This document shows positions 23,217 through 47,347 of a DNA stretch of 64,000 nucleotides, piece after piece (position 1 is the stretch's first letter; the number at the start of each line of letters is the position of its first letter). This DNA comes from an uncultured Candidatus Saccharibacteria bacterium (GTDB lineage: Bacteria > Patescibacteriota > Minisyncoccia > Phycocordibacterales > UBA9973), in assembly GCA_964441495.1 (NCBI GenBank), contig CAYTXV010000001.1:58851-122850 (forward strand), read 5' to 3'. The position numbers and the translations under genes were made by a program. The notes under the pieces were generated by a model. It worked only from the letters and a program-made list of their open reading frames with translations. It had not been told where the DNA came from and made no database searches.

Positions 23217-23332
23217 ACAAGCATTATGCCATAAAATGAAGCTTATCTAAAGGGCTCTTTGTCTCCTTTTCTGTGAGGAGGAAAATATAGATACGGGGTA
23301 AAAACCGTGTTTATAAACTAGCCATAAAATAT

Positions 23333-23708
23333 ATGGAAATATCAAAAGAATTGCGCGAGAAGTTTCGAGAGGAATTTAAGAAGAAAGGCGCGGAGTATAC
23401 GGAAGCCGAAGAAACCGAGGCAATTAATAATCTGACTGGTTTCTTCGAGCTGATATACGACTTCGCCAAACGAGACACTATCTTGCACAAGAGATTGAAG
23501 AAAGAGCCGAAATCGAATCCCACAATGAGTTTCAAGAGTCGGTGCTAGGGCGAGAAGTTAAAGAAAAGATAAAGATCAAGGAAATCGACATCAGGAATTA
23601 TGCAAAACATATTTTAAGAAAGAGACCAATGTATGAGAAGCGAGAATTACTGAGTCATCTGAGAAGCAAGCTGGTGTTGAAGGAGAAGCAACTGACATTG
23701 GTGAAATA
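23333..23708 (+). pseudogene. frameshifted remnant of a large serine recombinase C-terminus (second copy)
   Basis: Frame A gives MEISKELREKFREEFKKK...INNLTGFFELIYDFAKRD. After a frameshift, ...AQEIEERAEIESHNEFQESVLGREVKEKIKIKEIDIRNYAKHILRKRPMYEKRELLSHLRSKLVLKEKQLTLVK. This is homologous to the tail of the 15619-16548 ORF (KFQQSVLNIKQQIQIKDVDIRDYAKFILKDGAIEEKRELLTCFKSKILLKEKQIYIS). Confidence 0.6.
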
Positions 23709-23718
23709 GTGAGCAAAC

Positions 23719-23753
23719 AAAAATCATCAAATGAATGGTGATTTTTGTTTTTT
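23719..23753 (+). terminator. hairpin plus T-run after the recombinase remnant
   Basis: aaaatcatca...tggtgatttt followed by tgttttttg. Confidence 0.4.
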
Positions 23754-23839
23754 GAGACTAGTTCGAGCCCATGACTGGTTCTCAAAACTATTCCTCCTAA
23801 ACAGCCGTTTTAGGCGTTTAGGTAGGTCTCACATGACTG

Positions 23840-23910
23840 CTGCCCGACAGGGACTCGAACCCCAATTTACGGTGCCAGAAACCGGCGTCCTACCATTAGA
23901 CGATCGGGCA
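23840..23910 (-). tRNA. tRNA-Gln (anticodon CUG)
   Basis: Hand-folded cloverleaf: U1-A72 acceptor tgcccga/tcgggca, D-arm, anticodon loop uuCUGgc, T-loop ttcgagt. CCA is not encoded. Confidence 0.8.
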
Positions 23911-24150
23911 AATTAAATTTTTTATAATTTGCTCTTTTAACACCCTTTGCTGTTTAACTTTCTTTTCGAAAGCTCTTGCCCCACTTTCTTGTGCAAATTC
24001 CTGGCTATGCACAAGAGTGAGTGGTATATGGTGCCTAGTCGAACTCACCATGCCAGCATTGTGTTGGTGCAACCTTCTTTGAATATCGTTGGTACTACCT
24101 ACGTAATACCAGTTTTTCTTAGAGGATTTGAGAAAATAAACGAACCACAT
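23896..24150 (-). CDS. GIY-YIG nuclease family protein (UPF0213/YhbQ-like)
   Basis: MWFVYFLKSSKKNWYYVGSTNDIQRRLHQHN matches the GIY-YIG signature. The 3' end overlaps the first 15 nt of tRNA-Gln. Confidence 0.75.
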   Translation of the reverse strand: MWFVYFLKSSKKNWYYVGSTNDIQRRLHQHNAGMVSSTRHHIPLTLVHSQEFAQESGARAFEKKVKQQRVLKEQIIKNLICPIV

Positions 24151-24154
24151 ATCA

Positions 24155-24200
24155 TTATCCTACCATTAGACCTGCCTGCGCAGGCAGGCGATCGGGCAAT
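24155..24200. repeat. second copy of the tRNA-Gln 5' half (about 25 nt) interrupted by an 18-nt GC-rich palindrome
   Basis: tcctaccattagac-CTGCCTGCGCAGGCAGGC-gatcgggca, versus the intact tRNA tcctaccattagac-gatcgggca at 23886-23910. Together these form direct repeats flanking the GIY-YIG ORF. Confidence 0.6.
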
Positions 24201-24243
24201 GATCGTGCGCCCTACTATACCGGAAAAATGGGCTTTTTTCAAC

Positions 24244-26764: not shown

Positions 26765-26837
26765 GAGCCACCTCCGAGGATCGAACTCGGGACCTATGGT
26801 TTACGATACCATTGCTCTACCAGCTGAGCTAAGGTGG
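26765..26837 (-). tRNA. tRNA-Thr (anticodon CGU)
   Basis: Hand-folded: acceptor gccacct/aggtggc, anticodon loop atCGTaa, T-loop ttcgatc. Confidence 0.85.
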
Positions 26838-26840
26838 CCT

Positions 26841-26857
26841 ATCTGCGCAGGCAGGCG
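26841..26857. repeat. copy of the palindromic motif CTGCGCAGGCAGGCGAT also present in the tRNA-Gln fragment at 24167-24187
   Basis: 17-mer identity between 24171-24187 and 26841-26857, both immediately 5' of tRNA sequence on the minus strand. Confidence 0.5.
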
Positions 26858-46138: not shown

Positions 46139-47347
46139 TTAGCTGATACCACTTGCGATGTTGTAGATAGGGACGAGGATAGAGACAAGGAGGAGTCCAA
46201 CCCCCACACCGAGCGATATGATCATGAACGGCTCAATGAGTCCGACGAGTGTATCGACTGCTTCGTCGACTTCTCGGTTATAAAACTTTGCAAGCATTTT
46301 GAGGATAGAACCCATCGAACCGGTTTCTTCACCGACGAGGATGATCTGCGTCATGATCTTGGGGATCTCGGTTGGGTGCACAGAGAGTGCTTGTGAGAGT
46401 GGCTTACCAGCCTTCACAGACTCCATGGCGTCCAGCATCACTGCTTGGTAGCGCTTGTTGCCAACGACAGTTGCCGTGATCTCTATCGCGCGGATGATCG
46501 GGATACCTGATGAGAGCATCGTGTCCATGTTGTCAGCGATACGCGCCAAGTAAAGCTTCTGATAGAGGTTGCCGACAACAGGGATGCCGAGACGTGCTTC
46601 ATCGAGCACTTCTTTACCGCGTTTGGTACGCGAGAGTTTGATGAGATAACCCGCGAGGATCACGACACCGATCAAGAGAAATATCCCGTACTGCACGAGG
46701 AAGCTTGAAACTGCCATGACTATCTTGGTATAAAATGGTACATCTTGTCCGGACTCTTGGATGATCGCAGAGAGTTTGGGAACAACAACAGTAAACATGA
46801 GGATCATCACTGCGATAAATATACCGATGACGAACGCCGGGTACACAAGCGCATGCTTGGTCTTGGACGTGAGGGCGTACTGACGATCGAGGTAGTCTGC
46901 CATGTAGGCAAATACCTGGGTGAGCTTACCACTCTCCTCTCCGGCTTTGACCATGTTGACATAAAAGTCTGAGAACACATCAGGGTGCTTGGCAAGTGCT
47001 GCAGCGATAGCAGATCCTGCCTGCAAATCAGAGACGATTTGTTGGAGTTTACCAGCAAGCAGTTTGTTCTCAGTATTGTCCGCAAGGAGTGAAAATGCTT
47101 TGAGTGCAGACACCTGAGCATCAAAGAGTGTTGAGATTTGTCGCGAGAGGATCACGACTGACTTCATCGGGATCTTTTCGTAGATAGAAAGTTCAAACCA
47201 TTTCTTTTGCTCCTTTTCGTCTTTGATACTGGTGACGATGAGTCCTCGACGCTGGAGCCCTGCCACAGCAAGGTCACGATTGACCGCTTCGATCACTCCT
47301 TCTCGTTTCTCTCCTGCAGTAGTAATGGCTTGGTATTTGAAATTCAT
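46139..47347 (-). CDS. pilC: type IV pilus assembly platform protein PilC (GspF family)
   Basis: 402 aa with two T2SSF domains and 3-4 TM helices. Confidence 0.9.
   Translation of the reverse strand: MNFKYQAITTAGEKREGVIEAVNRDLAVAGLQRRGLIVTSIKDEKEQKKWFELSIYEKIPMKSVVILSRQISTLFDAQVSALKAFSLLADNTENKLLAGKLQQIVSDLQAGSAIAAALAKHPDVFSDFYVNMVKAGEESGKLTQVFAYMADYLDRQYALTSKTKHALVYPAFVIGIFIAVMILMFTVVVPKLSAIIQESGQDVPFYTKIVMAVSSFLVQYGIFLLIGVVILAGYLIKLSRTKRGKEVLDEARLGIPVVGNLYQKLYLARIADNMDTMLSSGIPIIRAIEITATVVGNKRYQAVMLDAMESVKAGKPLSQALSVHPTEIPKIMTQIILVGEETGSMGSILKMLAKFYNREVDEAVDTLVGLIEPFMIISLGVGVGLLLVSILVPIYNIASGIS

Follow-up and report, generated by a model that had tools for sequence, protein, structure and literature searches.

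GIY-YIG homing enzymes of the Seg and I-TevI type are proteins of approximately 200-250 amino acids (aa) with a separate DNA-binding domain. Smaller bacterial proteins of the UPF0213 family carry the same kind of catalytic core, and we know of no function, tRNA context or palindrome context assigned to them. The Rickettsia palindromic elements (RPEs) are approximately 100-150 bp long, occur only in Rickettsia and have no associated nuclease gene. A precedent among tRNA genes is SegB of phage T4. This free-standing GIY-YIG homing enzyme is directed at a conserved tRNA motif, has a 27-bp site and drives the inheritance of its own gene together with the neighbouring tRNA genes (PMC2330249). Here, we describe a locus in a 64-kb stretch of DNA from an uncultured Candidatus Saccharibacteria bacterium (contig CAYTXV010000001.1, positions 58,851 to 122,850; this whole stretch is called the window below), in which the gene of an 84-aa GIY-YIG nuclease is inserted in a tRNA-Gln(CTG) gene. 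The nuclease open reading frame (ORF) lies between a copy of the first 23 nucleotides (nt) of the tRNA (the stub), which is itself split by a perfect 18-bp palindrome (the 18-mer), and the complete tRNA-Gln. In our estimate there is a probability of roughly 45% that this locus is a small selfish cassette, one of a family resident in patescibacterial tRNA-Gln genes, homing-type in its behaviour and associated with a mobile 18-bp element.

The cassette is a variant of two known kinds of element, the free-standing GIY-YIG homing genes and the small palindromic repeat elements. As in the Seg family, a GIY-YIG gene stands among or in tRNA genes without a surrounding intron, and as in the Seg/I-TevI homing type, the gene is present or absent at a conserved site (present in the window, absent from the related contigs L112/L114 and L118-L121; surveyed contigs and loci are designated by L numbers). 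Unlike the Seg and I-TevI enzymes, the cassette enzyme has only 84 aa and no separate DNA-binding domain. Unlike SegB, the cassette duplicates the first 23 nt of its target, has a fixed palindrome in the stub and has an ORF that ends inside the tRNA; moreover, its hosts are cellular Patescibacteria, and the viral contigs searched contained no match. The GIY-YIG core is of the same size as in the UPF0213 proteins BH0048 and EF2693 and in SLX1, but SLX1 has an extra zinc-finger domain, which the cassette nuclease lacks, and acts with SLX4 on branched DNA. There are also likenesses to the repetitive extragenic palindromes (REPs) and their REP-associated tyrosine transposases (RAYTs), together termed REPtrons: short dispersed hairpin repeats, a single-copy nuclease gene flanked by copies of them, and no target duplication. 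However, RAYTs are HUH/Y1 enzymes, whereas the gene adjacent to the 18-mer encodes a GIY-YIG protein, and REPs are imperfect, extragenic and present in hundreds of copies, whereas the 18-mer is perfect, low in copy number, located in genes and tRNA copies, and identical across a phylum. Like the RPEs, it is a palindromic repeat found in frame in conserved protein genes, where it is probably translated, and in RNA genes; it has 18 bp, or 6 codons, mostly read as LPAQAG, and because size and sequence are unrelated, this is a resemblance and not membership. Finally, as in tRNA-integrated genomic islands and prophages, a duplicated tRNA segment keeps the tRNA functional, but in those elements the integrase is of the tyrosine or serine type and the duplicated segment is the 3' part of the tRNA, whereas the cassette has no recombinase, duplicates the 5' part and amounts to an insert of 270 nt.

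Read along the minus strand, the locus consists of the promoter, TGCCCGATCG, CCTGCCTGCGCAGGCAGG, TCTAATGGTAGGA, the spacer TAATGAT, the ATG and the rest of the nuclease ORF, and the complete tRNA-Gln (Table 1). The C-terminal end of the ORF overlaps the tRNA, such that its last five codons (LICPIV) and its TAA stop codon are supplied by nt 1-15 of tRNA-Gln, the stop being nt 13-15. The initial annotation had described a GIY-YIG ORF flanked by 25-bp direct repeats of the 5' part of the tRNA. The repeat is indeed exact, but its length is 23 nt (10 + 13), and although repeats do lie on both sides of the ORF, the ORF ends inside the tRNA and is not merely flanked. The palindromic block said to split the stub was found as described, the block given as CTGCCTGCGCAGGCAGGC being the CCTGCCTGCGCAGGCAGG block shifted by one base. 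Its reported recurrence upstream of tRNA-Thr also holds: a copy with 2 mismatches adjoins the 5' end of tRNA-Thr(CGT) and can be placed at 26838-26855 or equally at 26839-26856, the placement being ambiguous by up to 3 nt. Allowing at most 3 mismatches, the palindrome matches exactly twice in the window, compared with 0.00 matches expected from 100 shuffles. An abundant motif, which had been named as grounds for discarding the idea of a tRNA-associated element, is thus not what the window contains.

Comparison with close relatives revealed the site without the cassette. The relatives were found through FtsX, which is encoded directly upstream and has many relatives in Paceibacterota metagenome-assembled genomes (MAGs). 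In L112 and L114, whose FtsX is 90% identical to that of the window, the promoter (TTGAAA-17-TATAAT) comes next after ftsX, and the tRNA-Gln(CTG) behind it has the same sequence as in the window, with neither palindrome nor ORF; L118-L121, with FtsX 80-81% identical, likewise have a plain tRNA-Gln. Between the window and the empty site there are two differences: 18 nt, namely the palindrome, between nt 10 and nt 11 of the tRNA, and 270 nt after nt 23, composed of 247 unique nt and a second copy of nt 1-23. From this comparison, the promoter-proximal stub is the original 5' end of the tRNA-Gln gene, and owing to the two insertions the original promoter now precedes a dead stub, then the nuclease gene, and then the complete tRNA-Gln. 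At the tRNA-Thr site, L112 reads GTATC|GCCACC where the window reads GTATC-GCCTGCCTGCGCAGATAG-GCCACC, which is an exact insertion of 18 nt. The cassette and both 18-mers of the window are therefore insertions relative to a close relative, and the initial annotation, which took the gene for an insertion into tRNA-Gln, called for a comparison of this locus among relatives and suspected a recurrent element, is borne out in these respects.

Table 1. Features of the cassette locus and of the second 18-mer site, with positions in the window.
Feature	Position	Strand	Basis or remark
Predicted sigma-70-like promoter, TTGAAA-17-TATAGT	24214..24242	-	10/12 consensus matches
Stub part 1, TGCCCGATCG, copy of tRNA-Gln nt 1-10	24189..24198	-	exact repeat
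Perfect 18-nt palindrome CCTGCCTGCGCAGGCAGG, between stub nt 10 and 11	24171..24188	.	absent from the L112 empty site
Stub part 2, TCTAATGGTAGGA, copy of tRNA-Gln nt 11-23	24158..24170	-	exact repeat
84-aa GIY-YIG nuclease ORF, UPF0213/SLX1-like, catalytic domain only	23896..24150	-	Pfam PF01541
Cassette-specific DNA, 247 nt	23911..24157	-	window compared with L112/L114
Intact tRNA-Gln(CTG)	23839..23910	-	ARAGORN; Rfam 52.7 bits; sequence unchanged from the cassette-free relative
18-nt insertion GCCTGCCTGCGCAGATAG (minus strand), palindrome with 2 mismatches	26839..26856	.	alignment with L112
Intact tRNA-Thr(CGT), directly downstream of the second 18-mer	26765..26838	-	ARAGORN; Rfam

The same arrangement recurs far beyond this genome. 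The few close protein homologs found first (49-54% identity), on unrelated metagenome contigs, showed the structure of the window cassette: stub nt 1-10 come before the identical 18-mer, which is followed by a relic of nt 11-25 and by an ORF ending in NCGIV inside an intact tRNA-Gln. A pattern-based scan for ATCG followed by the 18-mer with two free bases, with one genome taken per species, returned 93 loci. Among them were 77 perfect copies of the 18-mer, nearly all in MAGs of Patescibacteria (the Candidate Phyla Radiation, CPR) labelled as Saccharibacteria, Microgenomates, WWE3, Minisyncoccia, or Nomura-, Kaiser-, Jorgensen-, Staskawicz-, Taylor-, Lipton-, Yanofsky-, Lloyd- and Vogelbacteria, with many Parcubacteria lineages represented; a few were in MAGs labelled otherwise (L029, L036), and the matches in GC-rich non-CPR genomes mostly had other bases at the free positions. 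The palindrome is not peculiar to this genome or to tRNAs: the identical 18-mer occurs in many classes of Patescibacteria and, as described below, in frame within housekeeping genes. Forty-one of the 77 perfect copies stand at nt 10/11 of a 5' fragment of tRNA-Gln, and two are in tRNA-Glu (L068, L082). At approximately 27 loci the stub is followed by a GIY-YIG ORF of 81-98 aa and then by tRNA-Gln 247-332 nt further on, while at approximately 13 loci a solo stub is separated from the intact tRNA by a short spacer only, in some cases with ATGTG remnants. At L019, L058 and L073 the stub continues into the rest of a full-length tRNA copy.

An independent survey of metagenomes, started from the protein motif W[YVI]YVGSTN, yielded 80 loci. 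In 67 of the 76 loci with enough upstream sequence, the 18-mer, mostly perfect, was found in a tRNA-Gln stub at most 110 nt upstream of the start codon, and in 72 of the 80 a tRNA-Gln was located close to where the protein match ends, at a distance of -22 to +52 nt. The architecture of the cassette is conserved across a phylum and accompanies nearly all members of this nuclease subfamily in many CPR classes; its presence is patchy, and decayed forms exist. In viral contigs, neither the tRNA-flanked pattern nor the protein profile gave a match, and the 13 matches to the 20-mer CGCC..AGG were all unrelated GC-rich hairpins or terminators; these empty searches indicate that the cassette is not phage-borne in that collection. 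An intron of the tRNA, whether group I or of the bulge-helix-bulge type, was considered and rejected, in view of the uninterrupted tRNA that adjoins the interrupted copy in 72/80 loci, the lack of any Rfam match besides tRNA, and the decay of the interrupted copies.

The nuclease itself is recognised without difficulty by the Pfam GIY-YIG model PF01541 (58.1 bits against a cut-off of 22.6, E=1.1e-15). An alignment of 23 cassette proteins has a mean column identity of 51%, and its invariant residues Y5, Y16, G18, R26, H30 and E62 cover the catalytic Tyr of GIY, the Tyr of YIG, and the Arg, His and Glu of this superfamily. The profile built from these proteins matched UPF0213 BH0048 (1zg2, 1.8e-12), UPF0213 EF2693 (1ywl, 1.8e-10) and SLX1 (7cq2, 2e-5), and I-TevI weakly (0.008). 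No NCBIfam model scored above its cut-off, the group I intron endonuclease model TIGR01453 reaching 21.9 bits against a cut-off of 56 and covering residues 3-40 only. Judged from these matches, the protein belongs to the UPF0213/SLX1-like branch of the GIY-YIG enzymes. It consists of the catalytic domain and a short basic C-terminal helix; there is no recognisable DNA-binding domain, and with 84 aa and no second domain it lacks the C-terminal zinc-finger domain of SLX1.

Upstream of the ORF, the AGGA in the second part of the stub, 7 nt ahead of the ATG, is a possible ribosome-binding site. Rfam searches in both gathering and E-value modes returned tRNAs only. A longer fold upstream of the ORF has z=-2.1 when computed on the window sequence alone and is not conserved among loci, and RNAalifold applied to the 5' untranslated regions of 30 loci returned only the invariant 8-bp hairpin, with no covariation. 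It can also be seen that an RNase P cut at the 5' end of tRNA-Gln would strip the stop from the ORF and leave a non-stop mRNA, because the stop sits within the tRNA. A stop inside the tRNA is common to many homologs (C-termini CGIV, WGIV and SGIV), and other homologs stop ahead of the tRNA. Through this placement, expression of the nuclease may be coupled to tRNA processing.

Variation among the cassettes is informative. In approximately 36 of 42 loci, nt 1-10 of the stub are those of the host's own tRNA (33 direct matches of 10/10, plus 3 after allowing for a 1-nt offset in the tRNA start given by ARAGORN), even though the acceptor stems of the hosts vary (TGCGGGA, TGCCCGA, TGGGAGA, TGGGGTA, TGCCAGA, TGCCGGA, TCGGGGA, TGGGGGA). 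The relic that follows the palindrome ends at nt 17-27, and its mismatches to the host tRNA often fall on the naturally polymorphic D-loop base. The idea that nt 1-10 of the stub are under stronger constraint than nt 11-23 was dropped, because the difference is small (approximately 5 compared with 8 of 42 loci with internal mismatches). In L166, L167 and L200 the intact tRNA lies upstream of the ORF, and it is the full-length downstream copy that carries 18-mers, at nt 10/11 and 37/38 in L166/L167 and in the T loop at nt 56/57 in L200. L153 has two tandem units, each composed of a pseudo-tRNA with two 18-mers and an ORF, with copies approximately 357 nt apart. L005 is a 529-nt MEGAHIT contig that begins and ends with the same 141 nt. 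Its unit is thus 388 nt long, comprises tRNA-Gln, the stub with its palindrome and the GIY-YIG ORF, and is either repeated in tandem or closed into a small circle; L110 was also counted among the tandem or circular units. The nuclease ORF of L097 is truncated.

The 18-mer has variants of its own. Nested copies at the centre of older copies were found in L059, L127/128, L136 and L200. A variant, CCTGCATGCGCAGGCATG, differs from the palindrome at two non-partner positions and is therefore not a palindrome, and it recurs unchanged, in both orientations, on several unrelated contigs (L059 at 235 and 4951; L122 at 406; L127 at 155; L128 at 1458; L153 at 74 and 431; L159 at 1128), often in the T loop of a tRNA (nt 56/57) or nested in the centre of a standard palindrome. 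A search for separated arms, as in a cargo-bearing form, returned only decayed or nested copies.

Outside the tRNA-Gln stubs, the 18-mer is found as a precise insertion in protein genes. Thirty-six perfect copies in the pattern-scan genomes are not at tRNA nt 10/11, and 28 of these are in ORFs of at least 100 aa, where they are read as LPAQAG (21), PACAGR (5) or CLRRQ (2). The hosts are housekeeping genes, including those of AlaRS, AspRS, UvrB, PurL, ClpB, FolD, TatD, KsgA and a PfkB kinase. The PfkB orthologs of L057 and L026 are approximately 85% identical, and at a single site, GGNGA^AGAC, one has exactly the 18 nt that the other lacks. Solved UvrB sequences have an exact 6-residue gap opposite LPAQAG, and KsgA is equivalent. 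LPAQAG is present in 2 of 120 CPR UvrB cluster representatives, at different positions, one of which was read at the DNA level and is a perfect 18-mer (GCGA-18mer-GAAA), and in 0 of 120 FtsX cluster representatives. At every resolved site the insertion is exact, target bases being neither lost nor duplicated, so the 18-mer inserts precisely at many unrelated sites. The bias in reading frame speaks for translation of the insert and its filtering by selection, and against its removal from the RNA. The flanks TCG^TCT, TCG^CC, GA^A, GA^G, TTC^GAA and TGG^CC share no clear insertion-site motif, although an excess of CG beside the 18-mer at resolved or unbiased sites is possible. In a folding test, coding insertion sites were 0.38 unpaired compared with 0.54 in controls, a comparison confounded because the sites were chosen via a GC-rich ATCG flank. 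A full-text literature search, in which not all journals were covered, found no description of this cassette or of the 18-mer, and nothing on LPAQAG, on GIY-YIG genes with tRNAs in CPR bacteria or on palindromic in-frame insertions in Patescibacteria.

Several related sequences were seen in the course of these searches. A 20-nt palindrome, CCTGCCTGCCGGCAGGCAGG, is common to L026 and L057; it has the arms of the 18-mer around a CCGG centre and reads CLPAGRQA. In the Microgenomates MAG JACQHK01, a one-mismatch palindrome (..CAGACAGG) lies within a longer repeat (L020 at 4921 and 5683, L045 at 1057) with conserved flanks (CCGATCGGTG..GTTTGATCCTA.GATCTCTAC); with at least 3 copies in one MAG, it could be a larger derived repeat family. 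The MAG JBBIIG01 (L088, L089, L090, L093, L096) carries ATCG plus the palindrome at least 5 times, each time on another contig. The flanks GCGGATCG..G[CT]ATCCGAC are common to L088 and L096, and L106 has the same left flank, which suggests local amplification. In the window, a lone left arm, CCTGCCTGC, stands at 47016-47024 with no right arm nearby and is probably a chance 9-mer.

Based on these results, we favour the homing-type cassette introduced at the outset, and its mechanism would be as follows. The 84-aa enzyme would break the DNA of tRNA-Gln at or near nt 10/11, a position inferred from where the palindrome stands. The break would be repaired by copying the cassette-bearing allele, for which pairing of the left end to stub nt 1-10 and of the right end to tRNA nt 11-72 would suffice. 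Such copying would move in the palindrome, the relic of nt 11-25, the ORF and nt 1-10, exactly the parts observed, and would rebuild the tRNA, which amounts to homing with restoration of the target. The cassette would be expressed from the tRNA's own promoter, and the palindrome would serve as the left boundary of the mobile segment and destroy the site in the stub. The 18-mer would in addition be mobile alone, or be deposited wherever the same machinery acts, giving the copy at tRNA-Thr here and the in-frame copies in housekeeping genes elsewhere. The rebuilt tRNA could be cut again and copied again off the stub, giving tandem units, and the tandem or circular units L005, L153 and L110 are as would be expected from such repeated copying. 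Mismatches at the polymorphic D-loop position are likewise what homing would predict, because the relic would travel with the cassette. The approximately 13 solo stubs, the truncated ORF of L097 and the patchy presence among relatives are signs of a cycle of gain, decay and loss. Also in favour are the empty and filled sites of close relatives, the results of both surveys, the agreement of stub nt 1-10 with the tRNA of each host, the conserved catalytic residues, the UPF0213 and SLX1 proteins as nearest solved relatives, and the precedent of T4 SegB.

Several points weigh against homing of this kind. The rebuilt tRNA beside the nuclease gene retains nt 1-25 intact, so the immunity expected in homing, in which the target is destroyed in the carrier, is not attained for the functional copy. 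Known GIY-YIG homing enzymes require a DNA-binding domain for site recognition, which the 84-aa protein does not have, and its nearest relatives, to judge by sequence similarity, are structure-specific and not sequence-specific. Homing alone also leaves unexplained why an identical 18-mer is found at unrelated coding sites, and why the 18-mer is invariant while the nucleases are only approximately 50% identical.

The main rival is a REP/RAYT-like explanation. Here the 18-mer would be a mobile hairpin unit that moves as single-stranded DNA, inserts precisely without target duplication and is mobilised by the SLX1-like GIY-YIG enzyme, with the tRNA-Gln stub as a master copy kept beside the nuclease gene. 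The exact 18-nt insertions without target loss or duplication at tRNA-Gln, at tRNA-Thr and in the PfkB kinase gene, and the insertion in UvrB implied by six additional residues in the protein, are in agreement with such a unit. So are the propagation of CCTGCATGCGCAGGCATG without change in unrelated genomes, as a copied sequence would behave, and the adjacency of palindrome and nuclease gene in 67/76 loci. The insertion points in tRNA copies (the 5' end, nt 10/11, 37/38 and 56/57, and the middle of an older palindrome) would all be unpaired or in loops if the single strand were folded, and the closest solved relatives of the nuclease cut DNA structures. However, the reaction of GIY-YIG enzymes is hydrolysis of DNA; they are not known to join strands, and the model would require a ligase as well; the folding test, confounded as it was, gave no sign that coding sites are loops; and the copy number is low (2 in 64 kb, and 2 insertions in 120 UvrB plus 120 FtsX representatives). 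The 23-nt duplication of the tRNA and the tie of the cassette to tRNA-Gln also find no explanation. This explanation is rather unlikely, but it is compatible with homing, and both may be part of the truth. A broader claim can be put forward only tentatively, and we regard it as doubtful: that CCTGCCTGCGCAGGCAGG and its variant CCTGCATGCGCAGGCATG constitute the smallest mobile DNA element described, hairpin-forming, precise and free of target duplication, present in tRNA genes and in frame in essential genes across the whole phylum, and mobilised by a minimal SLX1-like GIY-YIG nuclease in a self-restoring tRNA-Gln cassette.

The architecture of the palindrome invites another explanation. It is made of two inverted 9-nt arms of CCTG units, it has a 20-nt version with a CCGG centre, and nested copies sit at the centre of older ones, all of which would fit a filler left by a conserved Patescibacteria repair process at rejoined double-strand breaks, for example by addition of (CCTG)2C symmetrically to both 3' ends. 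The GIY-YIG enzyme would then merely supply frequent breaks in redundant tRNA-Gln copies, in accordance with the several insertions that pile up in pseudo-tRNA copies beside the nuclease gene and with a sequence that is invariant in lineages with diverged nucleases. Such a scar is nevertheless distinctly unlikely: no bacterial activity that adds a fixed 9-mer to DNA ends is known, end joining usually leaves variable deletions, yet all resolved sites are exact, and the asymmetric CCTGCATGCGCAGGCATG was propagated in both orientations, unlike what symmetrical addition of arms would give.

A host function for the whole module was also weighed. The nuclease gene would be an ordinary gene of the host, inherited vertically since an ancient event and co-transcribed with tRNA-Gln, and the hairpin would act in cis, at the RNA or DNA level, as an operator, for example, or in processing or the control of translation. 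The catalytic residues are under purifying selection, the hairpin stands at a fixed short distance upstream of the start codon and behind the tRNA promoter, and the stop inside the tRNA would allow RNase P processing and nuclease expression to be coupled. We find domestication improbable all the same, as the closest relatives do not have the module at this locus, solo stubs occur and some ORFs are truncated, the stubs follow the acceptor stem of each host, and only the hairpin is conserved as a structure, covariation being absent. In addition, the same 18-mer is found inside unrelated coding genes, where it could have no sensible part in regulating the nuclease gene.

The insert has tRNA sequence repeated directly on either side, and tRNA genes are classical integration sites, so that conventional mobile DNA comes to mind, either a transposon with a target-site duplication, as the initial annotation had proposed for a small mobile cassette, or an integrase element or minicircle entering the tRNA gene by Campbell-type insertion. 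The self-overlapping 388-nt unit of L005 could be a circle with one tRNA and one ORF, and two full-length tRNA copies flank the ORF at some loci. A transposon was rejected, however: the only ORF encodes the 84-aa nuclease and no transposase or integrase, there are no inverted repeats at the ends of the insert, and a 23-nt repeat, with an 18-nt insert inside it, far exceeds the 2-15 bp of transposon target duplications. An integrase island at tRNA-Gln was likewise rejected, as the 270-nt insert has no recombinase, it is the 5' part of the tRNA that is duplicated and not the 3' part as in integrase elements, and no second, att-like copy of the tRNA 3' end was found within the window. Conventional mobile DNA thus appears highly improbable. 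An artefact of assembly or sequencing, such as an adapter or a chimeric palindrome, can be dismissed almost entirely, since library artefacts can yield short perfect palindromes but would hardly place one 18-mer at one tRNA position in independent assemblies that number well over 100 and come from many projects and assemblers, confine it almost wholly to one phylum, retain it in frame in conserved genes and leave decayed copies.

The surroundings of the cassette and its relatives provided some further observations. In a comparison of window positions 23300-23838 with positions 4042-4100 of L112, synteny stops directly after tRNA-Gln, and in L115-L117 (3952-4458), from another relative, ftsX and tRNA-Gln are separated by a 168-aa ORF. 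In this lineage, the tRNA-Gln locus is a hotspot of rearrangement in general. Between small plus-strand ORFs and tRNA-Gln, the window has a 15-nt inverted repeat, AAACAAAAATCATCA / TGGTGATTTTTGTTT (23715-23750, 93% complementary), which looks like a bidirectional terminator. A related GIY-YIG gene of 79 aa (55% identity over 74% of the query) is located just 3' of tRNA-Ser(GGA) in L001 (2002-2579), L002 (49-626) and L003 (1-900). In L003 it is tandemly duplicated with a period of 364 nt, with repeats of the last 14 nt of tRNA-Ser(GGA) and other small hairpins, and the 18-mer is absent. It may be that several tRNA genes of these bacteria are targets of small GIY-YIG cassettes, each in a different way.

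If the favoured explanation is true, Patescibacteria harbour a previously unnoticed selfish system of two minimal parts, namely an 84-aa nuclease gene that sits inside an essential tRNA gene without killing it, and an 18-bp palindrome placed with precision in tRNA genes and in conserved proteins. Duplication of the 5' end and reuse of the promoter would then be a new solution to homing in an essential target, and a precise insertion element of 18 bp would, if confirmed, be without close precedent. For the widespread UPF0213 proteins, a biological context would be suggested for the first time. The system would also account for the recurrent LPAQAG insertions in CPR proteins and for odd pseudo-tRNA-Gln fragments, which annotation pipelines may miss or mis-call. 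In practical terms, the 18-mer could act as a simple sequence marker of Patescibacteria DNA, and it may give a handle on DNA break repair or single-strand transposition in these hard-to-grow organisms.

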